Part shown: positions 4,977 through 48,450 of the stretch, piece after piece
How the letters are laid out: each line of letters opens with the position of its first letter
Position numbering within the stretch: position 1 is the stretch's first letter
Assembly (NCBI GenBank): GCA_001600815.1
Contig: BCKZ01000012.1
Location: forward strand, 434,001-482,450
Reading direction: 5' to 3'
Source of the DNA: Alloascoidea hylecoeti
Taxonomy: Eukaryota
DNA length: 48,450 bases
Notes under the pieces: model-generated
Told to the model about the DNA's origin: nothing
Seen by the model: the letters and a program-made list of their open reading frames with translations, nothing else
The model's database searches: none
Translations under genes and position numbers: made by a program

Positions 4977-5564
4977 GATTTTATGGATATAAGTGGTGGC
5001 AAGTGGATGATTGATTGATAAACCAACTAAAACATCAGTTGAAATATGGAAACTGGAGTGTATGGGTGTATTTCATTATCGACGTTAATACAATGTCCCC
5101 AAATAAAGGAATCAAAAATTCCAATCAATTTATAAGGATTCATTAAATTTGTAAAATTAGAGCTATATTTATATTAAACAACAGATCTCGTTTTGGGTGT
5201 GGCCGTTTAGTTTGCTTTCTGTGGTACCGTATACCGGGTACATGTATAGTTAATATTAAGGTACCGGTATAACTAGTGAGCAGCTTGCCTCACACTACGT
5301 ATATGAGATTTGCTTTTATAAACTGAAATATCTTTATAATTAATTCTAAGTAGTTATCATGGACAGTATACCTTTCTTGAGAAGTCACTCTGTCCATAAT
5401 TACAAAGTTTATGGCAATCGTTTTTATACGATATAATCCAAGAAGTTTATGGGAACATTAAGGATAGATTCTATTGCTATGTATATATATCTACTCATGC
5501 TAACCCGGATTGACATAATCCAACATACAGAATGGTAGAATTGCTATACCAAATACCACACAGA

Positions 5565-6022
5565 ATGGCCATGAAGATTATTATAGATAAATTCAAACAG
5601 TACAGCGATGAAATTGAGAAAACATTCAGTGAAAATAGGCATCAGCTATCCGAGGTGGACCCCAGCATTTTTTTTGGTGACCTTAGTAAGGAGGAAAATT
5701 TAAACGAGTTGATGGCGCTTACTGAAGAAAGTATATTCTTCAATAGCAGTTCACTTGTGTTACAAAACCTTCTGTGCAATTTACCCATGACAGGTTTGTT
5801 TATAACTGGGTATAATAGTATGCCAAATATAGATAGATCAAGTGGTGCTGCTAGAAAGACTGGATCAAGTGGTGCTGTTAATGTTAACACTAGTTCCGAG
5901 ATAAATCAAATGGGTGATTATTTTTACACAACTTCATTTATCAATGGTGAGACACTAAAATTCGAAGCAGAAAGTATTTGGTTGGAGACAGCATTATCGC
6001 AATTAGATGGCCCTAGAGTAAA
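5565..6022 (+). CDS. N-terminal part of a divergent paralogue of the nuclease-kinase protein at 45305-47287, truncated by the assembly gap (alternative start 5532)
   Basis: FGDLSKEENLNEL / NLPMTGL / WLETALSQLDGP align with FGDLKIQENLEEL / NIPMTGL / WVKEMLPVVKGP of the 660-aa ORF; the frame is open up to the N-run. Confidence 0.8.
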
Positions 6023-22004: not shown

Positions 22005-22677
22005 TTATTTGATTTCTACGGCTTTGGGGCCATTTTCTAGTAATTTTTTAGCTTCTGCAGTCACACTAGGAGTCTCACTCTTTTCTCCTGATAAAATATA
22101 ACTAATTGTTTCACCACGTGTAGCACCTTGAGATCGTTTCCAAAGATAAATTCTAGTCAATTGAGTGGCAGCAACAGATCCAAGGAAAAAATTGACCGAT
22201 GCTAAGAGATAGTTCTTGGGGCGAATGACAAAGCAAAAACGGGTCCAGATAACACCGGTACTAAATAATGCTAATAAATGAATAATATTAAAACCAGGTT
22301 CTCAATAAAATGTGGGTTGGGGCTTTTAAACGAACTTACCAATCTGTTGTGTGCCTGATAACTTTTCGGCTGGTCTCTTAAAGTCACTTATACCTGCAAA
22401 AACCAAAGACCACTAGTAAGATTGTTAATAAGTTAAGTAACTTTATAGGAAGAGTTATTGCCTCTTATCTTTCACCCATTATAGTGCATACTTTTAAAAC
22501 AGGAGCCTAGATTAAAGTTGATTGTTAGAATTGATCAAGTATTATATATGATTCTTTGAAAGTCCCTGAAAAGCTGGTTTCTATTTATTTTATGGGGGTT
22601 AGTTTATCACGTACCCAAAAGTGTACTGTCCTAGGACCAGTCTCCGAGTTGATGAAGCGTGCGAATCGTGAAGCCAT
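22005..22677 (-). CDS. MPC2: Mitochondrial pyruvate carrier Mpc2/Mpc3-type; exons 22677-22615, 22506-22492, 22412-22340, 22270-22005
   Basis: Spliced product MASRFARFINSETGPRTVHFWAPVLKWSLVFAGISDFKRPAEKLSGTQQIALFSTGVIWTRFCFVIRPKNYLLASVNFFLG; donors GTACGT, GTATGC, GTAAGT and TAG acceptors; absent from the ORF track. Confidence 0.95.
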
Positions 22678-24395
22678 GCTGAATGAAGAAAAAAAGAGAT
22701 ATGGGACAGAAGAAAAGACAAGGAAACCAAAGGTTCTGTGGGGACAAGGAGCGGTAGGGTAAGTTTCCCTTACATTTCAATACAGCAACGGTTTAGCATA
22801 CCAATACATCCGAATAAGCAGAATGCCTGTCTAATTTAAAACTGATTGAACCGTAATAATAGCCTGTTGAATATCATGGTGTCACGTATTCATATATTCT
22901 TACTTAAAGGCCCTGAAATTACAATAACTATGGTCAATAAAAACCAAAAGGAAGAATAGGGTAATAAATACGTGAAAGAAGCATTTTAGTTCATGATCAT
23001 AGTCAGTTGGTGAATTGCTATGCTATGCCATAAGCTAGTAAATTTGAAACAGAGCATATAGGTAAGAATTAATTAATAGAATTTGTATACTGGTATTACT
23101 GGATACAACTAATATCAATGGTGGAGCATCAATTGGAAAAACAGTTGGTGGTCATTTGTGTGCCATGAATTATTATATAATTATCAATTGGTAGCCAGAA
23201 GAAGCTACTGGAAACAGGTATCGATTAAGATATAAAATCAAGTTAATAAATGAGCCTTCTACTGAATTGGCTAGCACTACAAAGATTGACACAAATTTTG
23301 AAGAGATTTGGAGAGATCCTCAGAGAAGATATCGATATGCACATGTTTTAATTTGGCTGCGATACGCAATACTTCTTTTTAAAGTGATAATAAACTGAAC
23401 TCAAGGACAAGAGTATATTTGGCCTATATAAAAAATATCCCTAATAATAGCAGACATAATACAGGAAAGAACGACTAATAAATGATGAATAGCCCATTAA
23501 TATTGAAAAGTCTGTACTATAATATAATTAACGAACTATTGAATCTTCCTCCTATGTAAGCCCTCTAATCTCTCGTATATGGAACTAGCTAGCCATCAGT
23601 TTATCTCTTAATCTTAGGATTGTTTTATTATATCTGGTTCTTCTCACTGTGTTATTATTATCATTGCTTTTGTCACTACTAAAAATATTAATAGTCTTCG
23701 ATAAATCCTGCTACAATTTGAAGTAAAGCACAGCCCTCTGTTCGATCAGCAGTAGTTAAGCTGGTAAGCGCCACCGAGTAATGCAACGAGAGATCATTAT
23801 TAAAACCGTGGGGCGGTAATCTTTTTGGATATTTGCCACTAAAGAGGAAGAACCAATTGTAGCTAAAACGATATTATTCACTTCATTCGTTGTTCATCCT
23901 ATATATATTTGTTATACTTCCATGAAGAGCCTCATTGTGAATTCGTGAAGGTCTCATGTCGAATCCAAGTAACGTTCACTTGCGCTTCTATTGCAATTAA
24001 ATTGTCAAAAGGCTTAAAACATTTCACACATATATATGATATAACTTATATGCCACGCAGGGAACGACAAAAGCTGCTCCTCAAAGTCAAATAGGTTATA
24101 TTCCGGACTTTATGATATCATCATGGCTAAATGCAGTTGTATTTTTTTTCTTCAAATATTTTCAACCTTCTAATCTTAATAGGCTCTTATGGTAGTAAAA
24201 TTTATATTTATGATAATATGTAAACACAATTAATTTACAATCACAAATTCACAAACCATCTGACCAGATTCTTGACTCGGAGTCTCGGTTTGTGTATCTA
24301 ATGAGGCTTGTGATATATTAATTATATGATCATGATATCAAATTTGCAATTTCTTGTTCAAGTATCGGCGCTATAATATAATTATTAATGACAGT

Positions 24396-24492
24396 TGTTA
24401 AAGTTGAAAGTGCGTGTTCTCCCAGTTGCGCCAAAAAGCCAATCGACTCCTAGTGAACTGTTCTAAGAGTGTAATATATATCCAACAACAGT
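24396..24492 (-). repeat. Dispersed repeat, copy B (homologous to 18818-18915)
   Basis: ccaaaaagccaat...gtgaa..ttctaagagtg..tatatccaacaa is the reverse complement of copy A with substitutions. Confidence 0.75.
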
Positions 24493-25451
24493 TGCACCGA
24501 TATCTAGTTTTTCTACTTTAGAACTGTTTACCCAGCCAGAGAGGTACTCTCATTAACTAAGTTCTTTCAAACTCACAATCAATTACAATCAATGCTGTGA
24601 TTATTAATTATAATAAGATTTGTGAAGCTATTGTTTGTGTTCGGAAGATATAAGCTTTTTACTCACATATATCTGCATGCACATATTTAAAATAACTATT
24701 TTGGATTATAGTTGTACGAAACTTATAAGACATAGATTCCTTTAATTATGGACCATGATGAGTTCGAACAGCAATATCAATTGTTTGGGGTTTACTACAG
24801 CGATTATATAATTAGTGGGCTACGTCTGGCAGCGCATGACGCATTGCCTACCGGTATAAATAATAGTTGTCCCGAATCCCAAGCGACAACTCAACAGGTT
24901 TTGTCACAACATAAACGAATATCTCATATGGATATCGTATGAATATCATATGGTAAGCCGATTCGGAAACGTACTTGGCCGCAGAATATGTATTGAGGAT
25001 TTAAACATATGAAAATGGATATATAAATGAGTTTCAATTGGAAGCTTATCTATCAACAAGCTAATGATAGCTTGTAAAAATAGATGTGCATTAACATCAT
25101 AGATGTTTGATCATAGCTTATACCGAAATGAGTATTTTATTATATAACAGGCTGCAGCATATGAAATTTGCCACAATACTCGATTATGGCCACTCGGAGT
25201 TAACGCTTTAGTAGCATTGCAACTAAATTCAGAAGATTGATTTAATTACAGAAGGTCTTTGCAGGTTTATATTGAATGTAGACGTACCGGTATATAACGT
25301 CCTGGGATCCCTCCGATCAATTGAAAATTTCCTATATTTGTCATCATCTCATGCTCATATCCTTATAACATTACACTATAACTGATACTTTAGAACACAT
25401 CATATAACCACAAGCCTTAAAACTCTTATTTATTGCAGACAAACAATATTC

Positions 25452-28045
25452 ATGGTTGGTGTTAATTACAAGACAGGAAGAGATCTTGCCTGTGTTGTGT
25501 GCCGCCGCCGAAGAGTTAAAGTAAGTTATCTGTTATCTTGATACATATTCCAATTGGAAACTCCACATCATATATTTATGGCTATAGATACTAATTATAC
25601 TCTTTTACATTCTAGTGCGATAAAGCAAAACCTACATGTTCGAGTTGTGAGCATATTGGGTGTCCAAATATGTGTCGATATCCTACAACAAAAAAGATGA
25701 CAAAATTGACTGATAAACTTCTCAGAGATCAAAATAAGAAATTAACTGATGAAATAAAACGACTCGAAAAAATATCGAAAGAGAATTCGAAAGATCCGAT
25801 TCTTGACCTAACAACCAGATTCCATTCATTACAAATAAAAACAAGTCATATTACTCATTTTGGTCCAACAAGTAGATTCTCTCTTATGCTTAACGACCCT
25901 GTTCTCATTAAGGTAACTAGAGCTGTAAAGAAATCATGGACAGAACGAGCCAAAACTTTGGTTGAAAATTTAAATGTTAATATCTCTCAATCGGTCGATA
26001 CCTATACAATGTTAGGAAACGGCGACAATGCAAACAATGCAAAACAATCTGAGTTTATCAATCAAATTGAATCAATTTTACCGAGAAGAAAGTATTGTTT
26101 CATCTTATTGAATATTTATTGGAATACTTATGATTATATCTGGTCAATTATGGATAAAGATATTTCATATCCTATGTTTGAAAAAGTCATTGGAATCTCC
26201 GAATTGGGATTTTGTAAGATAAATATTGAAACCTCTGCAGATTATACTATATTATCACTCTTTTTACTATGTCTGAGAATTGCCTATATAGTATTGCCAT
26301 ATGTTGGAGAAGATACCAAAAATATCTCGCAAATTTTATCCATTCCTAGGTATCAACAATTCCAATCATTAGTGAACAATAATATTATTATTGGACCAGA
26401 ATACCTTGCATTAGCTGATGAATTTTTGAGATTTAGGAAAGGCCCAGCAACTATATATCTTCTATATTATATGATGTTACTTCGTCAATACCACGTAATT
26501 GCTCCAGAAGATGGGGATGGAGTGGATATGGAAGATTCTAGTATTCTTTTTGGAAGCATAGTTTCACTAGCTATTAGCTTTGGATATAATAGAGATCCAG
26601 ACAATATCCCTGAAATAATCGATGAAAGAACAAAATACTATAGAAGAAAAGTCTGGTTATATATATTATTCTGTGATACAGCACAAGCAGCAAATCTTGG
26701 CCGGCCAGTATTAATTAGTAGCGAAGCTTATGATACAAAACCACCAACAATATTTAAGGAAGCTGAGAATGATCTCAAAATACGTTCTGACTGTGACTTT
26801 TCAGTAATTACCTATGACCTCACTTCATGTATCAGAGAATCAATTGAGAAGAACTTTAGTTTGAATTCACACACTAGGAGATCTTTTCTTGTACAATATG
26901 CTCAGCAATTATTGAACTTTTTGCGTGACAAATTACCTCTTTTTTCACACTTATTGATATATACTCCTCCAGAAAATTTAGTTTTAAGGGCAGAAAGGAT
27001 TAGATTGATACAATGTCGACTTTTATTGACAACCCAAGTTTATATAAACTATTATATTCTATATCTTAACTGTGGACCTGATGAGGTTGAACTTAGTCAT
27101 CTTTATCTACGTTATGCCCTTGGTGCTTCATTAATCATTTTTGAAGTTTCCATTAAATTTATAAAGAATTGTAAAAAATACTTTGGCTACGAATCTGTGG
27201 CTATGGTAGCTCCTGTGATTCTAAGGGCAACACAACGAGCTTTGCAATTAGTTGTTTCCATTTTAGTTAGAAGCCAATCGGAGAAGTATAAATACTCGGT
27301 CCCTTCATTAAATTTTCTTTATGATGATTCTCAATTTATGGATCATCTGGATTTATATGAAGGTTTGGTAGTAACCCCTAAGGATCCTCTTATGATATAT
27401 ATCGGTCAGTTTTATGAGCAGTCTAAAGTTTTATCCAATAAATATTTTTATTCATGGAGAATGATGCATTCTCTTTGGATTATAATTGGAATTATAGAAA
27501 AGAATATAAAATTTTCCATCTCATCTTCATCTGATGAAGACATCACTACTGGTCAACAAGATTCTAAAGCTCCTTATTATGGTGAAACTATGAGAATCAA
27601 TCCAATTTCAAGCATGATACCCTCAGATACCAAAACTATCGTAATATCCGCTCCATCAACAAGTACCAGTACTCCCTCCAATCAACTTCTCTCTTCTGAA
27701 GAAATTAGTACTGAAGTTCAAGACACAGAAGATTTTACCGAAACAACTAAATTATTACCTGATCATGATAAAGACGAAATTATGATGGATCCAACTCAAT
27801 CTCCGTTTTGGCAAGAAATATTTGAAAATAGTTTGGTTAATTTGAATCCTAACGATAATAATGCATTTGACTTTTCAAGTTTGAATGTTCCTACATTACC
27901 TGATGAATCTACTATAGATACTACCTTTTCGAACACCCAATTTCAACCTGAAGAAGATAATCTATTTACTGATATTCAGAATCTAGACGATTTTTTTCTC
28001 TTTGCATCCAATGATAATAACGATTTCTCTGCACATATTACTTGA
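25452..28045 (+). CDS. Zn(II)2Cys6 transcription factor with fungal middle homology region (Mrr1/Yrr1/Oaf1-like group); exons 25452-25520 and 25616-28045
   Basis: Spliced cluster CVVCRRRRVK|CDKAKPTCSSCEHIGCPNMC, HFGPTS, APEDGDG, GYNRDPD..RRKVW..D......GRP, acidic C-terminal activation tail. Confidence 0.9.
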
Positions 28046-32075: not shown

Positions 32076-34906
32076 CTACTGAGTTAAACTCATTTTCAAA
32101 TGCTCCTTGAAAACAATCATCAGTTTTTGGATTTCTTCATTCTTATAAGATGGCCCAGTTTCTTTAGGTATTCCAAATTTTTCAAACTTTCTTTTTTTAT
32201 CTAATTCCATAGAACTAAGAGAAAAACGATCATCATCTTCATCATCACTACTACCAAGACCATTTATTTCTGCAGTCATGTCTTGTAATTCCAAATCGTT
32301 TAAGCCAAAATCAGATGCTTCAATCTCGTTAAATGTTGTATCACCTTCAACCGCTGCAATAGTTTGTTTACGTAATGTCTCAAATAATGAAATAATGTGA
32401 TTAACTTCTTCTAACATTAAGGATTCATTGAATGAATTGATATCATCTCCAGTACCAATCTTAGACTTTGTTTCAATTATAACTTTTGAAATATCTATAG
32501 GTTTGTTTCTATTTTCGCCAGGTTTAGCTCTTCTTCCTTTTCTCAAAAAATCTAATATTGCTGAAAACCAATTAATGAATCCATCAAATAAACCATCTTT
32601 ATCATTCATATAAACACGATGTAAAAATTTATAAAATTTATCTTCATGTCTAAATAAAAGATTCATCAATACAGAAACCATTTCTTCTCCTGTTGCAGTA
32701 AAAGAATCATTTTGAGCTTGTTCAACAACAATAATCATATCATCAATAAAAATTTTAAAATCATCAACTGCTTCATCAATTTTTGCAGCTTTAAAAACTT
32801 TCATTAATGGATTGAAAAACATTGTTATAATATCTTTTATTAATGCAGTCATAATATCTTCACCCCATAAATCTTTAATTTGATTCTTATCACGTTTTCG
32901 AATTAAAAGTTGAAATAATACTTTAAGATCAAAAAATAAGGAAACATCATCACTAATCATAATATCTTCATCATCACTTAATGATGATTCTTCTAATTCT
33001 GATAATTTTCTAAATTCACGTTCAGCACCAATAATTCCATGCATTAATTTTTCATTTTTATTCCAACCAGGATATGTTGTATCATATAAAATAACTAATA
33101 ATTCAGTATTTGTATCACGAGCCTTCTCCTTTAATTTTTGTCTTGTTTCATCATCTGTATCAACGAATTTCTTAATAATACCAGTAATATTTTTATTATT
33201 AATCTTTTCTTCTAAAATTTTAATTGATTGTTCTTGTTCTTTTATATCTTCACTTAATACCAATGTAAAAATATTTTGTAATAAAGATTTTGTACCAAAA
33301 GGTTGTGCTAAAAATAAATTTATAACACCTTTCATCATTAACATTGGATTAGTATATTTCAAAACTTTTTGTAATAAAACATATGGCATAAGTTTTTGAA
33401 TTCTTTTAACTTGTGAAAACAATTCAGTATCTTCAGCAATAAATAGATAATAAATTACACTTGCTAATTCAATTTCTGCCCATCTAACAAATGTTAATAA
33501 TAATGGTGAAAGATCATCAAATTTTTCTTTTGTTTTAATTTCATTAAAAAATTCTTTTAATGCATTATTATTCATTATAGCATTTTTAAATTCAAATAAA
33601 TGGGTACTTAATTCTTGGTATTTTATATCAACTGCTTGTTGGAAAGTATTTTGATGATCTTTTCTAATTTCATCTAATTGAATTCGATTTGTTATATCTA
33701 TTAAATCTTCTTGTGATAAACGACGAATTGAATTTTTAAAAAGAAATTCTTGGAAGATATGAGATCTTACTACTTGAGGTATCCCTTGTAAAGTATTGAG
33801 ATATGATCTTAAAGATACACGTTCTTTTTCACGGTAAAATTTTGGATTTAAATCATCATTTGAATTTGATTTAGCAAAATATTTAGGACTCAAGTGTGAT
33901 AATTTCAATTTTTTCTTAGTTTCACTTTTAGTTTCACTTTTAGCTTCTGAACGAATTGATACACTATCATCATCAGTATTATCATTATCAGTTATACCAG
34001 TGGCATTTATTGAACTTTTTGAACTTTTTTTATGATGATGAGGAAGTCTTGGTAGGCGTTTTCCAGGAAATTCCTTAATTAAGTTTTCATTTAATTCTTT
34101 AAAATCCGAATAAGTTCTTTCAACATTTTTAATCTCTCCACCTTTATATTGACATTGTAATATAAAAGTACATTCTTTTGTAGAAGATTTTCCTAATGTC
34201 ATTGAAGTTGGTATAAAAGATTTATGATTTGATGTTTTTGATTTCCTAACAGATATAATATTTACTTTAATACCTTTAATGAATTTTAAATATAATTGAG
34301 TATTATCTCGTTTTTCAGTTGTCAATTGTAAATGATCTAATTTTTGTCGTGATGCTTGATATTCAGATTCTGATAATTGAACATCAACAGTTGTTGGAAT
34401 ACCAGATGATAATAAAAGTAAAATTACTCTATTAATCTTCAACATCATTTTTCTATAAGAAAAAGCAATTAGTAAATGTGTTCATTTAAATTTATAATTA
34501 TAATTAATTTGTATTACCTTCTTTTTGTATTTTCAGATCTATCTTCAGTTGAACTAATTTGTTTAGTGGCAAAAGATTCCCAAAATACTTGGATTTTATT
34601 TTTCCAAAATGCTTCATTATCATCTTTCCCAATAAATGATACAAATGGAAATGTTTTAATGAATTCATCAAAAATAAACCTTGTTATTGTGAATTGATAT
34701 TCTTCAGCATTTGTATTTTGTATAACTGTTGGTTTTTCATCTTTATGAGATGTTTCTTTTGATGGATCAGTATTGCTAAATGGTGATCCGAATCTCCGAA
34801 GGGAAGTCTCATCAGTTAATAAAGTAATCTCATTATCGAGTTGAAGTCGAAGGAGTTCTCGTTTAATGTAGTGTGCTTGTAAAGGAGTTATTGTTTGATT
34901 ATCCAT
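32076..34906 (-). CDS. PX-domain protein of the YPR097W/Lec1 (DUF3818) family; exons 34906-34518 and 34452-32076
   Basis: TPLQAHYIKRELL..LRRFGSPF, FWKNKIQVFWESF..ISSTEDRSENTKRR, PX RTYSDFKEL..EFPGKRLPRLP, REKERVSLRSYL, LFLAQPFGTKSLLQ. Confidence 0.85.
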
Positions 34907-35240: not shown

Positions 35241-36923
35241 ATGCTAAGAGCATCAAGATTCTATTCCACAAAGGTTTTACCACCAAAATCAAATGTCGCT
35301 GTTGTTGGAGCAGGTATTTCGGGTCTCTCTTACGCCTGGTATTTGGCTCAATTGAGAAAAGATCTCAACATAACAATAATAGAGCAGAAAAAACGTGTTG
35401 GTGGATGGATTGAAACATCTCAAGTGAACACAGACGTTGAAAAATTTGGATATGTTGATTTAGAACGAGGTCCTAGAACTTTAAGGGGTTCTTCGACTGG
35501 ATCAGTTTTACTGATAGATATGGTAAGTGATCATTTACTGTTATGGTATTAATTATACTAATAATTTTTTCAGTTAAGCAGATTGGGTAAAATAGATGAT
35601 ATAATTGCTATACCTCAAAATTCAATAGCAAATCAAAAATATTTATTATCACCAACTGGCCTTTTAAAAGTTCCTTCAACAATCTTTGAAACAATTCCAT
35701 TTTTTTTAAATCCATTAGGTAAAGGAATAATAATTAATTCATTATTAGAATTTTTTAAACCAAAAAGATCAAATGAATTAAAAGATGAATCAATTGATTC
35801 TTTTATAACTCGTAGATTTGGTAAAAATCTTTCAAGAAATATTTTATCTGCAGTAATTCATGGAATTTATGCTGGTGATGTTAAACAATTAAGTGCAAAG
35901 GCAACATTATCAAAATTATATGAATTAGAAGAAAAAAATGGTAGTATTTTAAAATCGAATTTAATAAAATTATTTACTAAATCAAAATCAAATAAAAATG
36001 AAAATATAACTAACAACGAATTAAAAATTTTAAATTATTATAAAAATAAATTACCAAATTTTAAAATTGATCCAATTAATTTATCAAATCATTTAAAAAA
36101 ATTCCCAATGATTGGATTAAAAAATGGTTTTGAAACAATTACAAAAACATTAGAAAAATCATTAATTAAATTTCCAAATGTTAAAATATATAAAAATTCA
36201 ACAGTTAAAAATATTAAAAATGATAATTTAAATGAAAATTGTATTATTGATTTTATAAAAGATGGAGAAAATCATCAATTAAATGTTGATTTTGTAAGGA
36301 CAAATATATCAGGATGTGATTTAATACCTCTATTAGAATCAAATTCTAATTCTAATTTATTAGAAGCAAAAGAAATCATTAATTCAATTCCATATGTATC
36401 TGTTTGTGTTGTTAATGTTTGGATTCCAAAAGATGTTTTAAATCATCATGGGTTTGGTTTTTTAGTCCCAGCATCATTAAATAATCCAAATAAAGTTCTT
36501 GGTGTTATATTTGATTCAGATATTTCTAAGAATTCAATTCCATTATATGGATCTACATCATCTACAACTAAGAATGAAAATGAAAATGATTACACAAAAA
36601 TTACATTAATGATGGGTGGTTATATGTGGAATAATTCAACAGCTCCATCACCATCATTAGCAAAACATGCAGCCAAAAATTTCTTATTAACCCATTTAAA
36701 TATCAATCTTGATAATTATTCAAATTCAATAATATCATCACAATTACAAGAAAATTGTATTCCACAATATACAGTTGGATTATTAGAAAAAATTGAAGAA
36801 GCTAAAAATTTGATAATTAAAAATTATGATAATAAAATAAGTCTTGGAGGAAATTCATTTATTGGAGCAGTTGGAGTTCCTGATTGTGTTGTTTCTTCTT
36901 TTAAAGATGCTTCTAAATTGTAA
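35241..36923 (+). CDS. HEM14: Protoporphyrinogen oxidase; exons 35241-35522 and 35574-36923
   Basis: FAD motif VAVVGAGISGLS, RVGGWI, ERGPRTLR, HGIYAGDV, GFGFLVP, LGVIFDS, CIPQYTVG, GVPDCV. Confidence 0.95.
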
Positions 36924-37746: not shown

Positions 37747-38793
37747 TTATATATTTGAAGATGAAGTTGAAGTTGAAGTTGAAAGAACTTTTTCAACAGC
37801 TTCAATTATTTTAGCATGAATTTTTTTAGGACCAGCAATAATTCCTTGACTATTTAAGGTTCTTCCAGAACCAAAATATAAAGGATTTCCAAACATATCA
37901 GAAACAATTCCACCAGCTTCAGAAACTAAAATATTACCACTTGCATGATCCCAAATTTTTTCACGATATTCCTTAGTAACAGGTAATCTAAGATAAATAT
38001 CACCATCACCTCTACTAATTGCACAATATTTAACCTGAGAATCTAATCTAACCGATTCTAAATTTATACCTAATTGTTTTTTAATAGCAGCTTGAGTTTC
38101 ATGAGATGAATGACCTTTTTCAACACCTTCACATACTCTTGCTAATGCAGGATTTTCAATGTCATTAAAATGAATGGATGTTGGAACCGACGAATCAATG
38201 AATAAAGGAGTTTGGAAAGAACCTTGACCTTTAGTTGCATAAAATAAAGAGCCTTTTTGGGAAGTATTATCATGTAATTTTGAATGTAAGTTTGGGCAAC
38301 CAATAACGCCTAGAACCACTTCTGCATCGACAATAAGAGCCAAACAAACAGCAAATTGGTCGCCCCTTAAGAAACCTTTTGTACCATCGATTGGATCTAA
38401 AGCCCAAAATCTTCCTTTTTTACCACCTTTTGAATCACCATGATCAATTGCATCTAACATTTCTTGAATAGAGTTAACTTTTCCAATGTCTGAGTCATAG
38501 GCATCCTGATTTTGAGTATTCACAACCAAATCGAAAACTTTTTGTCTCAGGGGTTCATTCTGTCTCAGAACATCAGAATCCTCTTCGCCAATGACTTCAT
38601 CCGTAGGAAACGCATGGCGAATGGCGGAAATGATGGTGGCTTGTGCACCGTAATCACCAGCAGTAACGGGACTATGATCGTCTTTTGTAACGGTAGTGGC
38701 GGTTCTCAGAGAATCCGAGACACTTTTGGTAAGGCTCGAGGCTCTTCTGACGGCCAACTGCGCCACCTTCAGTTCGTGTAGGAAAGCAGCCAT
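37747..38793 (-). CDS. MET22: 3'(2'),5'-bisphosphate nucleotidase Met22/Hal2
   Basis: KDDHSPVTAGDYGAQ, GEEDS, WALDPIDGTKGFLRGDQFAVCLAL, LDSQVKY, EKIWDHASG. Confidence 0.97.
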   Translation of the reverse strand: MAAFLHELKVAQLAVRRASSLTKSVSDSLRTATTVTKDDHSPVTAGDYGAQATIISAIRHAFPTDEVIGEEDSDVLRQNEPLRQKVFDLVVNTQNQDAYDSDIGKVNSIQEMLDAIDHGDSKGGKKGRFWALDPIDGTKGFLRGDQFAVCLALIVDAEVVLGVIGCPNLHSKLHDNTSQKGSLFYATKGQGSFQTPLFIDSSVPTSIHFNDIENPALARVCEGVEKGHSSHETQAAIKKQLGINLESVRLDSQVKYCAISRGDGDIYLRLPVTKEYREKIWDHASGNILVSEAGGIVSDMFGNPLYFGSGRTLNSQGIIAGPKKIHAKIIEAVEKVLSTSTSTSSSNI

Positions 38794-38847
38794 TTTACGG
38801 AGGAGGAAGCAAGTGAGCAGGCAAGTGGAGGCAGATATCTAGGCGCA

Positions 38848-38854
38848 TCACGTG
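38848..38854. promoter_or_regulatory. TCACGTG (Cbf1-type site) 55 bp upstream of MET22
   Basis: Consensus match upstream of a sulfur-assimilation gene. Confidence 0.55.
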
Positions 38855-38901
38855 GGTAATATGGAGTTCACGCTATAACGATGCTTTATGCGATCATAAC
38901 C

Positions 38902-38978
38902 ATGCCAACGTCCGGGCCCAGATCTGGAGGCCACAGCCGGAACCGAAGGCCTCCAGATCTGGGCCCGGACGTTGGCAT
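38902..38978. repeat. Perfect 31-bp inverted repeat with a 15-nt spacer
   Basis: atgccaacgtccgggcccagatctggaggcc (38902-38932) and ggcctccagatctgggcccggacgttggcat (38948-38978). Confidence 0.97.
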
Positions 38979-39119
38979 TTACATATAACATAGACCGGAC
39001 GAAAAGAGCAGGATTTGGATTTATATGGCGCAGGCCTGAGTCAGCAGTTACTAATTGGACGATGCATAGCAAATCAAACCTCCTTTTCTTTTTGTTTTCT
39101 CCATCTCAACACAGTTATT

Positions 39120-41293
39120 ATGCTCAAGGTGAGTTTGCTGGATCGCTTGTGTCGCGAGGGGCGCTCGGGCCGCGTGGGCCGCGAGGGGCCGGATCACATG
39201 ACTCCCCAACGGCAGAGGGTCTGCGGGCAGACATGTGACTGGACAGCACCCTAGCATGTGACCTGATCTGTAAGGCGCCAACAATACTAACCAATATCGA
39301 TCCTCAGGGAATCCGCACGCGACGCTCGTTGAAACACTCGTCCGACTCAGGCCTGCACTCGCGCTCGGTCTCGTCCGGCACAGGCCCCCACCCCCACACG
39401 GGCTCGTCCCCCAAACAGCACCCACAACGTGCCTCTGCAGCCGCGGCCCTTTGCGTCCCCAAAAAGGTCATCAAGGCTCTTTTCGACTACGACCCCCAGG
39501 GGCCCGGCGAGCTGGGCTTCCGCAAAGGCGATTTCTTCCACGTCGTAGGAAACGAAAATAACCCCGAATGGTACGAAGCTGCCAACCCTTCTACGAACCA
39601 AAAAGGTTTGGTCCCCGCCGCCTATTTCGAGGCTTTTGGCCGCACCCGTCCCCAAACAAGAAACAACTCCGTCGGCAGCAACTCAACCGACCCAGCTTCT
39701 CCAAGAGCTTTGTCCCATTCAAAATCAAATAGTGCTTCCATCAATGATGTCGATATATCCTTGTACGCTACTGGAGCTGCCTACAGTACTTTATACGCTA
39801 CAGTTCTATACGATTTTAATGCTGAAAGACCCGATGAATTAGATGTGTCTGAAGGTGAGCGTGTTATAGTTTGTGCTCATCATAATTATGAATGGTTCAT
39901 TGCAAAACCAATCGAAAGATTAGGTGGTCCAGGCTTAGTCCCATCATCTTTTGTTCAAATCACAAATATGACCACTGGCCAAATCATTGATAATGTTGTA
40001 ATGGCGATTAAAATTGGTCATGTACCAACTATTGATAAATGGAAATTGAAGAATGCGCAATATCAAGCAAATGCAATTCCATTAGGTAAAGTTGAATTAG
40101 ATCCATCTCCTTCAAATCTAGATTTTATCCCTGATCAATATAATAATTCTATATCTAATACTGCATTACAGTTGGATGGATCTATGCAACAACTGAATCT
40201 TAATGTACCTTCTTCAATTCCTGAAGGTGAAGATGAGAGTGAATCTATTAATTATAATAATCCTTATAATGAAACTTCAAATGAAATTTCAAATGAAAAT
40301 GAAATATCAAATTCATTATCAAATTCAAATTCAAATTCAAATTCAAATTCAAATTCAAATTCAAATTCAATTTATTTAGTTCAAGCTGCTGTAACTGAAT
40401 TTTTATTTGATAATGATAGATATTGGTATGTTGTTACTTGTCATACATCTGATGGAAGATTTAGAAAATTATGTCGATTTTATCAAGATTTTTATGATTT
40501 TCAAATTAAATTATTAGAAGAATTCCCTGAAGAAGCTGGTAAAAATGGTAGAGATAGAATCTTACCTTTTATTCCTGGTCCATTAACTTATGTTAATGAT
40601 TCAATTTCTGGTCAAAGAAGAATTGATTTAGATCAATATGTTAAAAAATTAGTTTTATTAGATTCAAAAGTTTCTCATAGTAATTTAGTTTTACAATTAT
40701 TTGAATTACGTGATGGTGATTTAGAATCTTTTAATGAATTACCAAAAGAATTACCTGAATCTTTGGCAATACCAAAATCAAATAATCCAAGAGTTGAAAT
40801 TCCAACTGCAACTGCTGGTACTAATATTAAACATGATATAAATTATACTTCAAGTTTAACTTCTGTTGTTTCAAATGGTGAATCAAATTATACATCAAAT
40901 TTATCAAATGTATCAAATGGTGAATCATATTCATCAAATAAATTTGATAGACCAAATTCTCAAAATATAACAGAATATCATAATATCAATAATAATTTAT
41001 CAACTTCTGAATGTAATGCAATTGTTAAAGTTAAATTTTTCTTTGATGATGATATATTTGCATTAAATGTTTCACCAATTATTTCATTAATTGAATTAAT
41101 TGAAAAAGTTGGTTCTAAATTAGAATTAAATCCATCAATTTTACATTTAACTTATTTACCACCAAATAGATCAACATCAAATAATGATGAAAATGATCGT
41201 GATACTTTTGTTAATATTCAAAATGATGATGATTTATGGAATGTATTGGAAGGGAAAAAGAAAGTTTTATTATATATTAGAACTGTTTCATGA
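39120..41293 (+). CDS. BEM1: Polarity scaffold Bem1 (SH3-SH3-PX-PB1); exons 39120-39128 and 39308-41293
   Basis: ATGCTCAAG|GTGAGT...TACTAAC...CAG|GGA joins in frame (MLKGIRTRRSLK); KVIKALFDY..GLVPAAYF, YDFNAERPDEL..WFIAKPIERLGGPGLVP, PX RFYQDFYDFQI, PB1 KVKFFFDDDIFAL. Confidence 0.96.
40319..40370 (+). repeat. (TCAAAT)n coding microsatellite giving a Ser-Asn repeat in Bem1
   Basis: Tandem tcaaat units. Confidence 0.9.
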
Positions 41294-41736: not shown

Positions 41737-42077
41737 TATTACTATTGTTTTTATCTGTTTGATCTTTGCTGTTGATATTGGTGTTTCTTTTCTCTCTTTT
41801 TTCTTCTTTTTTCTTCATAAATATTTATATTGTTTATTTTTTAAATTTAAATTACTAATTATTGAGCTTAATCCCTTTTCTTTCATATAAATTTTATATT
41901 TTACTTATTAACTTATTATACGCTAGCTAAAACTATGATAACTATGTTATGAATATATATATATAGTTGAATTTACGATGTATTAAAATTGTAATAATTG
42001 TATTTGCAATTGTAATCATAATCATAATCATAATCATAATCGATATCATATATAATAATAATTGTAATTAATATTGA

Positions 42078-42747
42078 TTAAAAATCAGTTAAAATTTGTA
42101 ATGCATCTTTTGTTTGATTTTTATATTCTTTAACTAATTTAGACATTGGTTTAAATCCTTCATTTTTTGCATCATTCATAATTTCAAATAATGTACTTTC
42201 ACTTGTTGATATAATTGCTCCTTCATTTTTCATTCTTTGTAATGCAATTGGAATTTCATATTTATTAATACTTGATATACCATCTGCAAGAACTTGTACT
42301 GAATAACCTTTTTTTAATAAATCTAATGTTGTTTGTAAAATACAAACATGAGATTCTAATCCAACTAATATAACTTTTGGTTTCTCTTTTGATAATGGAT
42401 TTAAAACTTCTGGAATACACATACTAAATTTTGTCTTATCCGCATTTGCAATAACATTTGCTTCTTTGATCTCATCAAGAATTCGAGAATCTGTATCACC
42501 TAATTTCCCTCGAAGTTGTGTAGTTAAACAAATTGGAATTCCTGTTTGTTTACAAAATTTAACTAATTTGTTGGTTCTTTAAATCATATGCATGAGGATT
42601 AATATAAAATCTTATAACATTATACTCTTAACAATATATAAATTATCAAATAACTTACGTTTGAACAAGGGATTCATATCCGTGAATATGTTTCGTGAAA
42701 ACTTGTTGAATATCACAGATGAATAGAGCGTATTTTGAAGCTGACAT
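42078..42747 (-). CDS. Isochorismatase-family (ISOC1/2-like) hydrolase; exons 42747-42659 and 42576-42078
   Basis: ALFICDIQQVF, TTQLRGKLGDT, DKTKFSM, VILVGLESHVCILQTTLDLL, STSESTLFE; GTAAGT donor and AAG acceptor keep the frame. Confidence 0.9.
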
Positions 42748-43795
42748 TGATTATAATGAAAATGTTGATGGTATGAAAAGGAAACAAGGAGAGTTGGCTC
42801 CCCACTAAATTGTATGGATATTTGAGTCACATGTGTACGAGGGATCCACCATACTTTTGCAAAAAATGATTTAATTATTTTGGGATCTACTATATATTGG
42901 AAAAAGTATCAATGGATTAATCCTTTAATTAATATTCAGATAGGATCATAACCCAATGGAAAACTCAGACAAGGGCATAAAATTTACAGGATTAAAAAAA
43001 ACATCCTCATCATTATTATGGTCCACTTGGAAAATTCTTTGACAAGAACTCAATTGCAAGAGGTTGCTCTAAAGCGCTCTTATGGTCTAATTATTTCGAC
43101 ATCAGCCTTTCGATTGTATCCTATTTGAAAACCAATGCAAGATAGAGGCATTTCACAAAGTTAGTAGAAAAAGTTACTCTTCGTGTATTTCTATTTTTCA
43201 AGTAATAATTAATACTATTTTTAGTTAAACAAATTTTTAAAAAGTTTAATTGACATATTTTTTAGAAATACTAGTTTGCTTCTTTTTCACCCCCGCCCTT
43301 CTGTTTACAACCTAACTAAATAAAGTAAGATACCCACTCCTCTTGTCAAAGGTGTGAAGCTTCATTATTGGTTGAAAAGGATCACAAGCATTATCAAAGT
43401 ATTGAGGGAGTCATCAATTTTACTTCAAATACCATGTACGTATAGGAAGACAAGATATTTCATTAGGTGTTTCTCGTTCATCAAGACTTTTAACGAATAC
43501 AACTATAATCAAATTAAATCAATCTTCAAGCTGTTTGTAGCTTATTCCTCTATCTTTAGTCTGGATTAGAAAATGAAATCCTCTATGAACAACTAAAGTT
43601 AGGTTCGTTAAAATCTTGAAAATATAAAGAGAAGCACCGAATGAAATATTTTGGCTTTGTAAACCTGAAGTAAAATTTATAACTCTCACAATAATTTGAT
43701 GATGATTTATGTTAAGAAACCACATTGAACACAATAATCTTTAAAATCAAATTTATAAAATCAAAAATATACCAGTATAAATTTCATAAGATTTT

Positions 43796-44061
43796 TTAAA
43801 TTTTCTTAACCCTTTTTCTTTTTTTGTTTCTCTGTGCAATAGTCATTTCTTTTTCCTCGCGCTCTTTATTAAATATTCTATGCTTTTCTTTTTGTCGATC
43901 CAATTCAAGTGTATCATTTGTTTTTTCAGATATCGATGACAACCTAAGCTTTTCTAATTCTTTTAGTTCTAATTTCTTATCGGTTGATGTAGGGGCGGAT
44001 AAGCTACGTTACCGAACCCGAAACCGAAAAAGTATACTTCACCCTCACTAGTTGCAATTTT
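43796..44061 (-). pseudogene. Decayed C-terminal remnant of a third nuclease-kinase family copy
   Basis: KIATSEGEVYFFGFGFGNVA versus MKVTADKEVYFFDFGFGNTA of the 660-aa ORF; after a frameshift, a charged tail ending NKKRKRVKKI* versus GTKRKRSDNL*. Confidence 0.72.
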
Positions 44062-44063
44062 AG

Positions 44064-45255
44064 GAACTTCTCCAACATGATACCCGGAATAATTGGATGA
44101 ATAGAATATCTGATAAAGCTCCTTTGGTAAGAGAAAGATGGACTATGAAATCTTATACCGTTCTTGCTACAGAGTTGATGTTATTAAAGAAGTTTCGAAT
44201 GGTTTAACCAAATGTTTAATCGATACTAATAGAAAAGTTAGATTATTTGCTTGCAAAACAGTTTTATTATTATCTGAACATTTATTACCTACAAAAATCA
44301 GAAATAAAACATTAGTTTAGCAAGAGAACATGATCCAACCATTAGATCTAGAATATAGTTATTGATATACTGGGACAATTATATAATGAAAATTTTGGAG
44401 ACTTATATTTTGGTAATAATGATGGACTGCCTGTAATCAAGAGTAGGGTAACCACATATATTTTCTATAAGTATACCATACTAGTCAATTTCTTTAATCG
44501 ACTTGGTTCGACAATCAGATATTGCCCAACCCCTATCTCACGGGTACATCACCATTTGAAATTAATAATGAAACTCTTATTAATAGATTATTAACTGTTA
44601 TAAAAAATATTAATGATTCAAAATCAAAAAATTTATTTGTATCAATTGGTAAAAAAAGGATCACCAATTGATGATAAAGAAATTACATCAAACATTACAA
44701 AATCAATTGAACAAATATCGAATAAAGCTAAAAAATGGTTCTCTGCTTTATTTCCTGATGATATGGATGTTGAAAGATTATTAACAGAATTTATTAATAA
44801 AAATGGTAAAAGATGGTATTACCATTAAATAAAAAGATCTAAAAATTGTATCTCATATTTCAGTTTTAACTTCATTATACTGAACATGTACATGTATCAT
44901 TACCTGAAATAATTGGTATAAAAGAAAATGAAGAAATAACAGCATATCTATATCTTATTAAAAATGTTCTTTTGAAAAATGATATTTCAATATATGAAGA
45001 AAATGATCAATTATGGTTAAATGATAAATTAATACAGAGAATTTAGCAAATATTTATGTTTTAAAATTATTTGTTAATCGTTTAAAAATTTATGAAGAAT
45101 CTTCTGAAGATGCAACACATCAAGCTGATCCTGTTTTTAAAATTTTATTTTCATTAATTGGACATGGTGGTGAGATATCAACTCCTTCATACACAAGATC
45201 AAGATTAAGGCTACAGACAAGATTATTATTACTTAGCAAAGTTCCTCAGCAATTC
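44064..45255 (+). pseudogene. PDS5: Decayed internal fragments of cohesin regulator PDS5
   Basis: Colinear blocks in shifting frames: NNWMNRISDKAPLVRERWT, EVSNGLTKCLIDTNRKVR, LAREHDPTIR, PFEINNETLINRLLTV, KWFSALFPD, YVLKLFVNRLK, FKILFSLIGHGGEI, TPSYTRSRLRL; each resembles fungal Pds5; no start or end, many indels. Confidence 0.85.
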
Positions 45256-45304
45256 ATAGAATAAAATAAATAAAGCAAAATCATAAAAAGTTAAATATAG
45301 CCGA

Positions 45305-47287
45305 TTACAAATTATCTGACCTTTTTCTTTTTGTTCCTAAATTCTGTGGCAATTTATATTTTTCATTTTTTAATGCTTCTTCCCTGATATTTTGCAATTT
45401 GGTCAAGTCTTCCTCTTTTCGACGACGAGTGGCTTTTCTACTAATTCTTGCTCCTTTTCTTTTTCTTGTTTTTGTTTTTGTTCTTTGAGCTGTGTTTCCA
45501 AAGCCAAAGTCAAAAAAGTACACCTCTTTATCTGCTGTGACCTTCATGTTAGATCTTCTTATGTCACCATGAATTATTCCCTGTTTATGTAACAAATTCA
45601 ANNTTTTCTCGGCTTTGTCGAAAACACCTTTATCTAAGAAATCAGGNTTTTCCCCTTCTATGAATTCTATTAGAAGAAATAAACCAGAACTACAAATAAT
45701 ATCATTGTCATAAACAGTACAAAACCCTATTCCATAAAGAGTAGGGACAATCTTTTTAAATCTTTCGTCACCTGCTACTGACAAGTAACTATCNAGTTCA
45801 TTCTCATAACACTCATAACAATGTTTAGCCATCTCATTCAAGCCTCTATCAACGTTAGCACAGGTAACTGGATCAATTATCTTCAGAATATATTTTTTGT
45901 TTTCCATAAGATTAAAGCAACAGATTCCACCAGTAGCTTCGATAATTGTTGTACCATTGAAAACCAATACTTGGGAATGATATTGATATTCTTGAGAATA
46001 TTGAATTCGATCCTCTAATGGGATTAAATTAATATTTATTTTTAAATCCATTTGGCAAGTAAAATGTCCTTCTTTTTTTCTAAAATATACGGATTTCAAA
46101 AATAAATNTTTTAAATTTTGNCTAGATTTTATTTCATCTTTAATGATTTCACCGAGAGTTTCAGCTAATAATACGTTAGNAATATGTTGCATCTCTTCTT
46201 CAACTTTGTTTCTAGTGTAACGATCGAAAAAATCAATAGATTTTTTTATAAAACATAATAATGTTGATAAAACATTTTGGTTCTCAGCTTTAATAATTTT
46301 GTAATTGATTTTGAGTGTTTTGTAAAGAACCTCTTTACTTCCAGGAAATCCTATCGAATTTTCTTCACCTTCCTCTAGACCAATACCAGTAGTACATATT
46401 TGTAAGAAGAACATTATAAAACCGTCACTAAGGATGCCAAATGGCGTCTTTAATGTTAAGCACTGTTGCAGTACTTCATCAACTCTTACTTTAAAATCAG
46501 AGTTNATTGAAAAATGGTTGATGTCGCCGACCATTTTAGTTAATATAGGCCTTTTCAATTCTATGGTGATGAGAGGCTCATACATATGATAAATCANCAA
46601 ATCTGATNTTGTAGTTAATTTTACCTTTCTTCCTTTTAATTGNTTTATTANTCCGGGTCGTTCTCCTNTGACGGTNAAATATGATGAACTCGTTAATGTA
46701 TTAAAAATCTNGAGGCAGGGAGTAAACAGCTTNANAAGAAGAAATTGGNGGACGTNTGCTTCTTGCAATTCTCCTTCAGAGAAAAAGTTTGTATCCAGAA
46801 TTGACACCAATTGATTATTTAACCCTCTATATATAGGGCCTTTTACTACCGGTAACATTTCCTTGACCCACGGTTCGTTTTTAAAATCCAGCACTAGTTC
46901 TCCATCGAGTTCGAAAATAATCTCCTTCATATAATCACTTAATTTGTTTCTTTTCGACGTAACCCCACTTGCTGTTGTAGACTTACTGCTACTTTTGTTG
47001 AGACTACCAGTATTCATTATGGGTTTACTTGATCCTGCAATTTGGCTACCAATTTGAATCAACCCCGTCATTGGAATATTAAATAAAAAATTTACCAATA
47101 CATCTGGACTGCAATTGATCATTATATCTTCTGTGGTAAGCTTCTCCAATTCCTCCAAGTTTTCTTGGATTTTTAAATCTCCAAAATAATTCGCCATATT
47201 TATTTGGCATAATTGATCCCCATTTTCTCTGATTTTTTCTTCGACATCTTCTGCAAACCGCTTAAATTTCACTATAATACTCTCCAT
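45305..47287 (-). CDS. Putative PD-(D/E)XK nuclease plus atypical protein kinase fusion (Crinkler REase-kinase / Spok-like architecture), 660 aa
   Basis: Nuclease-like SDLxI...ITIELKRP...VLQQ...FGILSDG; kinase YILKIID, YENE, IVPTLYG, LLIEFIEG, LHKQGIIHGDIRRSN, FFDFG with truncated C-lobe; basic NLS-like tail. Confidence 0.78.
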   Translation of the reverse strand: MESIIVKFKRFAEDVEEKIRENGDQLCQINMANYFGDLKIQENLEELEKLTTEDIMINCSPDVLVNFLFNIPMTGLIQIGSQIAGSSKPIMNTGSLNKSSSKSTTASGVTSKRNKLSDYMKEIIFELDGELVLDFKNEPWVKEMLPVVKGPIYRGLNNQLVSILDTNFFSEGELQEAXVXQFLLXKLFTPCLXIFNTLTSSSYXTVXGERPGXIXQLKGRKVKLTTXSDLXIYHMYEPLITIELKRPILTKMVGDINHFSXNSDFKVRVDEVLQQCLTLKTPFGILSDGFIMFFLQICTTGIGLEEGEENSIGFPGSKEVLYKTLKINYKIIKAENQNVLSTLLCFIKKSIDFFDRYTRNKVEEEMQHIXNVLLAETLGEIIKDEIKSXQNLKXLFLKSVYFRKKEGHFTCQMDLKININLIPLEDRIQYSQEYQYHSQVLVFNGTTIIEATGGICCFNLMENKKYILKIIDPVTCANVDRGLNEMAKHCYECYENEXDSYLSVAGDERFKKIVPTLYGIGFCTVYDNDIICSSGLFLLIEFIEGEXPDFLDKGVFDKAEKXLNLLHKQGIIHGDIRRSNMKVTADKEVYFFDFGFGNTAQRTKTKTRKRKGARISRKATRRRKEEDLTKLQNIREEALKNEKYKLPQNLGTKRKRSDNL

Positions 47288-47943
47288 TCTGTGTGGTAAA
47301 GAAAAGAAAATGGGACTGATAAGAAGGATGAGGTAGAAGTATGGCGATACATTATATAATTACGTTTAAAAAATATTTGATGGGTTTCTGATTCTAACAT
47401 CTATACATTCCTTAANTCGCGGATTCGCCTAATTAGGCAACTCTTTTTTATTGCGAAAAAGATGTGCCCTTNCCTGGTCGTATATATAAGGCAGCTAATC
47501 TGGAAGATTTACGTGAAAGACCTTCTCTGAAATCTGAATCGGTCAAAATTAATTCACCAAACCAGAAGAATAAAAAATGATTATCATTAAGAGAAAACAT
47601 AGTATTCTTAAGCTTACNATCAAGNTATTTTATCATGNTATCCTTATATACATATATTTATGGTATTTTAGGGCGCGTGGGCCAATAATATCTTGATTGA
47701 TAATAATTATAAGCTTAACTAAATAACTAAATAAAATGTAATTAGCAGTTTTTAAAAAATATTAAAGAGAATAAAAAAGTGCTGGCGATACAATAATAAC
47801 AATAAAAATTCCAAATGTGATTTTCGATCGATATGAAGAATATATTTCAAAGATATGGACAAGAGCTTTCTCCAAAAGAGCTCTAAATGTTACGAAAAGA
47901 ATTATAGCAAAAGAAGAAAACAAAATTAATGGGATCTCTATGT

Positions 47944-48450
47944 TCCCATCCAATTTAAGACACATCGATTGAATAAAGCGGGGGAAGAAATAATTTGAGG
48001 TGAAGAATTATTTTCAGGAGTATCCATTGTGAAAATAACATGAATATTTTGAACAATTTGTTGGGTAAACCATCTGTATAGCTCTTCCTGAGATTCAAGT
48101 AAAAGACCTTGAGCTTGTGCCTCATCTTTACAAGCGTTTATCAATGCTACATATTCATCTCCTTCGAATAAGCCAGGGATTTCTGCATTAGCAAGAAGGG
48201 TGGTATTCATTCTTTCAATAAAAGCTGTATCCATGATGTTTAACTCATCAATTATAAAACAAATTCGTTCACCATGTATGCCAGATCGCTTTAAAATATC
48301 TCTCAACGAAGAATCAAAATCTTGAATTGTATATTTCCTATGAACATTAAGTTAAGTTGCACAACTTTAAGACCGTTCATCCAAGAAACAAATCTTGCAA
48401 AAGTAGTTTTACCACTACTACTAGCGCCAATTAAAATCATATGGCCCTGT
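47944..48450 (-). pseudogene. DYN1: Decayed fragment of cytoplasmic dynein heavy chain (AAA4 region), continuing off the window
   Basis: [79 protein letters not shown]; 5-nt duplication frameshift at 48347-48356, extra Thr codon, abrupt stop after NWMGT. Confidence 0.88.

Follow-up and report, generated by a model that had tools for sequence, protein, structure and literature searches.

Genes and fragments of the island

The subject of this study is a small genomic island in the yeast Alloascoidea hylecoeti, built around a gene that appears to join a nuclease to a kinase (hereafter the nuclease-kinase or NK gene). The island lies at the right-hand end of a 48,450-nucleotide stretch of contig BCKZ01000012.1 (assembly GCA_001600815.1, forward-strand positions 434,001 to 482,450), which was analysed whole and is called the window; all coordinates below count from its first base. 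The layout described in an original prediction, made from the letters of the stretch, is present. Read from left to right, the island begins with the 3' remnant of an NK gene and decayed internal pieces of PDS5; an open NK gene comes next, then some 650 bases of unassigned sequence, and last a truncated piece of DYN1, the dynein heavy chain gene, that covers its AAA4 module (Table 1).

Table 1. Features of the island and the second NK paralog, in window coordinates (N, ambiguous base; X1, X2 and X4, public sequencing runs described in the text)
Feature	Coordinates	Strand	Basis or remarks
NK 3' remnant, about 85 codons with one frameshift, from an older divergent paralog	43796..44049	-	tblastn, reading frames, direct repeat
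Left edge of the multi-copy block	44050..44053		contig breaks and loose ends in X1, X2 and X4
Dead internal PDS5 fragment, about Pfam positions 316-853, part of the repeat	44054..45264	+	PF20168, reading frames, contigs
Open NK gene, 660 codons	45305..47287	-	open reading frame; 17 codons with an ambiguous base
Short C-terminal kinase of NK, about residues 440-600 (K469, E497, H573-G-D575, N580, D593-F-G)	45488..45970	-
NK nuclease core, PD-(D/E)XK type, roughly residues 176-340 (E176, D229, E243, K245, D288)	46268..46762	-
NK 5' flank	47288..47638	-	N at 47416, 47472, 47618, 47625 and 47638
AT-rich sequence with no family match	47639..47940		family searches
Dynein heavy chain fragment, AAA4 module, running off the window	47941..48450	-	Pfam AAA_8
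Second, divergent NK paralog, N-terminal 163 codons, running into a 915-N gap	5532..6022	+	tblastn

The NK frame is open from end to end, as had been claimed, and its ambiguous codons include none at conserved nuclease or kinase residues. Across an alignment of 13 family members, E176, D229 and D288 of the nuclease part are invariant, E243 and K245 are kept in at least 90%, and K469, E497, H573, N580 and D593 of the kinase part are invariant or nearly so. Judged from its sequence, NK thus retains intact predicted catalytic residues in both parts. Not far past the DFG motif the kinase domain ends and gives way to a basic helical tail. The 19 ambiguous bases of the frame are distributed 7, 4 and 8 over the first, second and third codon positions, and 11 of them cluster in residues 178-231, the stretch leading up to and surrounding the catalytic Asp. 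If these bases are differences between copies, they would mostly be amino-acid changes concentrated in one patch, recalling fast-diverging driver families.

A structure model of full-length NK (mean predicted local distance difference test, pLDDT, 61) begins with helices from residues 2-28 onward, falls below a pLDDT of 50 for residues 36-172 and ends in a C-terminal third that matches protein kinases in Foldseek. Residues 175-440, modelled alone, reached a pLDDT of 66.7 and a predicted template modelling score (pTM) of 0.69. The best match of this nuclease model among 48,161 chains (VIA) was the restriction enzyme BpuSI (Z 10.2, 131 residues aligned, root-mean-square deviation 3.2), followed by an HsdR fragment of Vibrio vulnificus (3h1t, Z 8.3) and DrdV (Z 8.3), and about twenty further PD-(D/E)XK nucleases rank behind these three. 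Pfam returned only partial kinase hits on NK (Pkinase, ABC1, APH and RIO1). On the strength of the models, NK is predicted to be a PD-(D/E)XK nuclease of the restriction-enzyme type fused to a short kinase and preceded by a helical N-terminal part.

A HMMER search of 1.84 billion representative proteins gave 74 matches at E≤1e-3 and four at E≤1e-10, the best being a 482-residue protein with 34% identity to NK; beyond those four, the matches mostly cover the kinase catalytic loop. Relatives with the whole layout, about 630-770 residues long, were found in Debaryomyces hansenii, Scheffersomyces and Priceomyces, and two shorter matches to the kinase region (463 and 497 residues) in Trichomonascus. 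Two of the D. hansenii relatives, DEHA2D12672p and DEHA2D12650p, bear adjacent locus names, fall in one 90%-identity cluster and are placed on a contig of equal length, which looks like a recent tandem duplication. A word-indexed search with the NK protein found nothing, and none of the 30 stretches matched when Joint Genome Institute (JGI) metagenomes were scanned with six NK peptides proved to be a relative.

A second member of the family stands at the other end of the window, between VPS27 and a gene of the SMC family, to which it is tail to tail. This paralog is 36% identical to NK over 154 aligned positions, and its 5' side is ordinary intergenic DNA adjoining VPS27. Host-gene scraps therefore do not surround every member of the NK family. 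The gap that cuts it short also interrupts the SMC gene. We considered the SMC gene (7240-8916) as a further captured fragment and rejected this, as it continues in frame up to the assembly gap. Its frame contains an in-frame TAA at 7240-7242, with an N at 7214, and yet runs on to the gap. If the paralog and the SMC gene are both whole, the real gap must exceed the written 915 N by several kb.

A third member is the remnant at the left of the island. When the window was searched by tblastn with the full NK protein, the remnant was matched at 44055-44002 on the minus strand, with 12 of 18 residues in agreement around a DFG-like motif. Two minus-strand frames, 43969-44142 and 43796-44008, encode a basic helical C-terminal tail like that of full NK, with a frameshift between them, and the remnant forms a direct repeat, 72% identical, with 45488-45526. 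The kinase remnant that had been proposed does exist on the minus strand, but its right end lies at about 44050-44055 and not at 44142, bases 44056-44170 being part of the PDS5-derived repeat.

The PDS5 homology lies in three plus-strand pieces that match the Pfam profile PF20168 at positions 316-362 (44138-44317, E 1.2e-4), 482-538 (44613-44825, E 0.012) and 785-853 (45028-45261, E 8.9e-10). Two of them align with residues 353-382 and 846-898 of Lachancea thermotolerans Pds5 (structures 5f0o and 5f0n). Stops are present, the pieces occupy different frames, and about 1.1 kb has to hold roughly 540 profile positions. The fragment is thus internal, frameshifted and internally deleted; the description of this host piece as internal and decayed was correct.

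The DYN1 fragment consists of two minus-strand parts, 47941-48351 and 48348-48449. They give a hit to Pfam AAA_8 (E 5e-20), and their identity with dyneins from filamentous fungi is 63-71%. The homology ends at a stop codon (47938-47940), and a 5-base tandem duplication at 48335-48344 shifts the frame and offsets the two parts; this piece is thus truncated and frame-shifted. No second dynein piece was seen anywhere in the window. The exact 98-residue DYN1 reading frame is found again in an NCBI record, on a contig of 731 bases. This record may not be independent of the window; the stop after the dynein homology is confirmed in that record, and the region is evidently fragmented in assemblies.

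A multi-copy block with a sharp left edge

Contigs from four public runs were aligned to positions 42000-45601, and all read support given here refers to that span. Runs X1 and X4 come from the same organism, sequenced in two separate studies, a third study supplied X2, a wood-decay metagenome, and X7 comes from a related organism. X7 gave low-complexity matches at 45451-45488 and one 233-base contig of depth 2, and a stretch left bare by its contigs says nothing on absence.

The left flank (42079-44079) is represented by one identical 2368-base contig with a depth of 25.1 in X1, 8.3 in X2 and 8.6 in X4, which we take as the depth of unique sequence, and the NK remnant accordingly lies in single-copy DNA. 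This contig contains the join of the remnant to the PDS5 block and reaches 30 bases past 44050. Rightward of this position the sequence is covered by short contigs with depths of 66-186 in X1, 44-93 in X2 and 45-69 in X4, about 3-11 times the unique flank; these depths are word depths rather than copy numbers, and we read them only as "several copies". At the edge itself (44050-44053) the depth in X1 rises from 25 to 106. Loose ends at 44050 and 44053 show that other contigs bear unrelated left flanks, in at least two different contexts, which supports the presence of several copies independently of depth. Additional alternative flanks or break points occur at about 44777-44819 and at 44967. 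Right of 44050 the copies are almost the same in sequence, the listed contigs showing 0-4 differences.

The last PDS5 piece and the 3' end of NK are bridged by single contigs, which span 44967-45601 in X2 and X4 and 45211-45601 in X1. Together with the loose ends, these bridges indicate that most copies, if not all, have the PDS5 fragment physically linked to NK. One multi-copy block with a sharp left edge thus holds both the fragment and the 3' end of NK. Both joins on the left of the island, remnant to PDS5 and PDS5 to NK, were found within contigs of X1, X2 and X4, and the left junctions, for which a check on long reads had been advised, are real. In the basic tail of NK, the window copy differs from the contig consensus by an 18-base indel at 45463 and four substitutions. 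Further right, the scattered ambiguous bases of the NK 5' flank suggest that this sequence is probably still inside the repeat. Short motifs that end the flanks of the other copies are absent from the surroundings of the island, so the window gives no sign of a tandem array.

The contigs also point to the source of the PDS5 piece. Over 44053-44314, all three runs contain a variant contig at about 1-2 times the unique depth (31.2 against 25.1 in X1, 18.1 against 8.3 in X2 and 17.3 against 8.6 in X4), which differs from the window by 16-17 substitutions and by insertions of 26, 1 and 3 bases and which extends more than 100 bases further left, continuing as PDS5. When these changes are read by hand, two frame breaks disappear and a single open PDS5-like frame of about 100 codons results. 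The variant is therefore probably the functional PDS5 parent, or at least a far less decayed copy. If it is the parent, the fragment in the island was probably copied at the DNA level from the PDS5 gene of the host, from which it differs by about 6%. The expectation of an intact PDS5 elsewhere is in this way answered in part: the low-depth variant is open across the two frame breaks, and it is only a probable parent.

Likeness to Spok genes and origin of the island

The best-understood single-gene killer/antidote drivers are the Spok genes, spore-killer genes of Podospora and further filamentous ascomycetes that were reportedly described by Grognet in 2014. In the available part of Vogan 2019 (PMC6660238), SPOK3 starts with a coiled coil and domain 1, continues with a PD-(D/E)XK nuclease and a cysteine cluster and ends in an atypical kinase, and the best HHpred hit of its nuclease domain is V. 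vulnificus HsdR. According to the same part, the K240A mutant loses killing and the D667A mutant loses resistance, so that the nuclease kills and the kinase protects, and Spok genes occur as several near-identical copies, with pseudogenes and with length changes at the 3' end. SPOK1 kills by acting on DNA, as stated in the accessible portion of PMC9972908, and Spok homologs span filamentous lineages in that of a 2025 preprint (PMC12930445).

Compared with these portions of the Spok papers, NK is alike in several ways: (i) like Spok, it is one protein in the size range of about 650-780 residues, in which an HsdR-like nuclease, a linker and a C-terminal atypical kinase follow what may be a comparable helical or coiled N-terminus, (ii) it exists as several near-identical copies beside divergent and dead paralogs and (iii) its length varies near the 3' end, as the 18-base indel in the contigs illustrates. 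The nuclease residues D229, E243 and K245 are conserved and the predicted fold matches BpuSI, HsdR 3h1t and DrdV, while the features of the Spok kinase, an atypical ELK-like domain with a catalytic Asp and a DFG motif, find their equivalents in H573-G-D575, N580 and D593-F-G, set in a kinase fold. As to the QxxxY motif of the Spok nuclease, the family has a conserved stretch Q...(Y/T), which reads Q-Q-C-L-T in NK and Q-M-V-Y-Y in some relatives. An Atlas search with a D. hansenii relative returned clusters with members of PF27653 (SPOK2_N) at ranks 9 and 11 with a score of 0.93, which is a lead only; the same search with NK residues 1-177 gave nothing above 0.87. The host differs, NK belonging to a budding-yeast-like fungus and the Spok homologs, as far as the portion of PMC12930445 goes, to filamentous lineages. 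From the kinds and order of its domains, its structural template and its genomic habit, we suggest that NK may be a distant member of the Spok kind, and that by analogy it may act as killer and antidote.

Our preferred reading of the island, which we hold with slightly more belief than doubt, is that a selfish, Spok-like gene family was amplified as a DNA segment and that the scraps of host genes are passengers. A PDS5 fragment would have been joined once to an NK gene, and the joined segment, at least 3.6 kb long (from 44050 to at least 47638), would recently have multiplied in this yeast with the PDS5 piece as a passenger. In the window, one copy of the segment would abut the truncated 3' end of an older NK paralog, with the dynein fragment on its other side. 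The sharp, shared left edge favours a discrete unit. Like the original prediction, domain and repeat scans found no transposase or terminal repeats, and this lack, with that of an end motif and with the unequal extents of the copies, favours movement by break repair or ectopic recombination rather than by a classical transposase. We count the divergent paralogs within the same 48 kb, namely the copy at 5532 and the remnant, as support for an NK family of this kind.

Several points weigh against this reading. On the side of the protein, the Z scores of 8-10 for the nuclease model are modestly above the best Z of 7-8 usual for models without a clear match, and Foldseek gave no match to that model at E≤1e-3. 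The C-x3-C-x13-C-x5-H-x7-H cluster that the accessible text describes for Spok does not occur upstream of the NK kinase: NK has cysteines at residues 474-491 in the pattern C-x13-C-x2-C, of which the family retains one semi-conserved column only. Pfam scans of NK and its relatives hit no Spok model, a word-indexed search with a profile of the 13 aligned members returned four generic kinases among 8000 candidates scored, and a profile search of the PDB gave matches to the kinase catalytic loop only, with no solved Spok among them. A killer role for NK, with toxicity or an action in meiosis, is a prediction by analogy. On the side of the segment, the copy number is based on contig word depth and is not a copy count, the copies share unequal extents, the right-hand edge is not defined and the ambiguous bases may be poor sequence rather than differences between copies.

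The original prediction had offered two origins for the island, a cargo-capturing mobile unit and repeated breaks patched with ectopic DNA. The former would make the segment from 44050 to about 47700 a non-autonomous transposon of a Helitron-, Pack-MULE- or Starship-like type, with its enzyme encoded elsewhere and with PDS5 and DYN1 as cargo. Part of this stands: PDS5 does travel in a multi-copy block, the host fragment lies inside the unit, the copies are near-identical, and the sharp edge at 44050-44053 is common to copies with at least two unrelated left flanks. However, the two ends of the block share no terminal repeat, inverted or direct, and no target-site duplication was seen, the right end of the segment being undefined. 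Scans of reading frames across the window (E≤1e-3) and of the island (E≤0.1 to 1) found no Rep-helicase, MULE transposase or tyrosine-recombinase captain, and over 43000-48450 no frame encodes a domain of the transposase, helicase or recombinase kind. The copies also differ in extent, with break points at about 44777-44819 and 44967, which suits segmental duplication or ectopic recombination no less than transposition, and the bases at the edge are unlike the ends of Helitrons, which are TC on the 5' side and CTRR on the 3' side. We thus consider a transposon unlikely. The other proposal, that the NK nuclease or fragile repeat DNA causes breaks near NK and that end joining inserts pieces of PDS5, DYN1 and old NK, agrees with the abrupt joins of unrelated, truncated pieces in mixed orientation, with a PDS5 piece that lies about 6% from its probable parent and so comes from the host's own gene, and with the action of SPOK1 on DNA (PMC9972908, in the portion cited above). 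But the same PDS5 fragment with the same edge in several copies indicates that it was acquired once and then copied, the paralog at 5532 has an ordinary 5' neighbourhood, and DNA cutting by NK, near its own gene or elsewhere, is a supposition; this origin seems to us quite unlikely.

A different kind of explanation would be a subtelomere-like duplication block, its repeats shuffled by ectopic recombination, or, in part, an assembly artefact in which the left flank of one copy was joined across a collapsed repeat to the right flank, with the DYN1 piece, of another. The unequal extents of the copies would fit, as would the confinement of the ambiguous bases to the NK gene and its 5' flank, the end of the window within the DYN1 piece, the occurrence of the same DYN1 frame on a 731-base contig of another NCBI record, and a further assembly oddity, the in-frame TAA of the SMC gene beside the gap. 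The isochorismatase and Zn-cluster genes near the island are of kinds that are common near yeast chromosome ends. Yet the join of remnant and PDS5 lies within one contig in three runs of three studies, albeit with only 30 bases to its right, single contigs span the join of PDS5 and NK, no repeat of telomere type turned up, and the second paralog sits among core genes. We regard this explanation as improbable. A bolder version of the preferred amplification of a Spok-like family, in which a Spok-type killer-antidote family of budding yeasts would copy its own discrete segment of about 3.6-3.9 kb into new sites in a homing-like manner, through breaks made by its own nuclease and free of any transposase, and would occasionally weld in PDS5 or DYN1, strikes us as rather improbable.

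Other known systems share some of these features. Crinkler-type effectors are eukaryotic conflict proteins that combine restriction-endonuclease-fold and kinase modules, and NK, with its predicted nuclease-fold domain joined to a kinase, may be comparable to them. One Atlas row carried Crinkler and Pkinase together, and domain scans of NK and its relatives detected no Crinkler N-terminal domain. The WHO homing elements at FBA1 of Torulaspora and Lachancea (Coughlan 2020, PMC7282813) are alike in that nuclease genes and pseudogenes lie amid dead pieces of a host gene, in clusters that accumulate through repeated DNA events. In contrast, the portion of that paper on which we draw describes WHO proteins as intein/HO-like, whereas NK is a PD-(D/E)XK nuclease with a kinase, and the WHO fragments as invariably 3' ends of a single target gene, left at the locus of that gene. 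The piece of PDS5 comes from inside its gene (profile 316-853), moves with the unit and is found with different flanks. The wtf and tdk genes of Schizosaccharomyces, which are killer meiotic drivers, form quickly duplicating and diverging single-gene families with many pseudogenes per genome, according to the available parts of PMC12930445 and PMC7032740, but they encode unrelated proteins with neither nuclease nor kinase.

If amplification of a Spok-like family is the true origin, selfish genes with the Spok layout extend to budding yeasts (Debaryomyces, Scheffersomyces and Priceomyces, with matches to the kinase region in Trichomonascus), and small, tractable genomes become available for studying what makes the nuclease kill and the kinase protect, and by what route the genes move. 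The linked dead PDS5 piece would serve as a ready-made marker for the history of the copies. Among the papers listed in a survey of the literature, supplements aside, none is by title or abstract on Spok-type genes in budding yeasts.

The rest of the window

The window is AT-rich fungal DNA (G+C about 30%) with an ordinary set of yeast genes, among them ATG3, VPS27, the SMC gene, an actin-related protein, RRP1/Nop52, GPD, a HEM14-like and a BEM1-like gene and an isochorismatase, with a Zn-cluster gene also near the island. Very short introns of about 50-60 bases occur throughout (e.g. 15759-15812, 35526-35572 and 34482-34516), with GTAAGT, GTATGC or GTAATA starts, ACTAAC or ACTAAT branch sites and an AG end. 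As these introns split many intact genes in lists of reading frames, a change of frame alone is no proof of decay here. Ambiguous bases comprise one gap of 915 N (6023-6937) and 27 shorter sites (26 single positions and one pair), and 23 of the shorter sites, all single positions, fall in 45602-47638, that is, in the NK gene and just upstream of it. A search for tRNA genes found none, and Rfam gave no match at E≤1 over 42800-48450. The meiotic promoter motif GNCRCAAAW occurred six times against 5.8 expected, with no match upstream of an NK gene.

Some peculiarities lie outside the island. A G+C-rich stretch at 38001-40000 (0.43-0.51 against about 0.30 elsewhere) covers the 5' ends of a gene of the inositol-phosphatase family and of the BEM1-like gene. 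The region 16700-25600 is gene-poor, with few long reading frames and few Pfam hits; it includes a 425-codon frame without a family at 20010-21284, and a strong AT skew is seen at 20-21 kb of the window.

Just to the left of the island, the contig depth of a stretch of about 77 bases (43356-43432) is about 36-fold that of the unique flank in X1 (904 against 25), and in X2 and X4 the ratio is about 13. The stretch is part of an imperfect palindrome, within one of its two arms (43386-43507 and 43594-43707, 70-83% complementary). Neither tRNA, Rfam nor Pfam searches matched it, and it may be either a dispersed repeat of short length or DNA derived from an organelle. In the loose contig ends, an 8-base word closes the flank that other copies of the block carry left of 44050, and the reverse complement of this word ends the flank of the other copies of the 77-base element (loose end at 43432), either by coincidence or through a shared neighbouring element.

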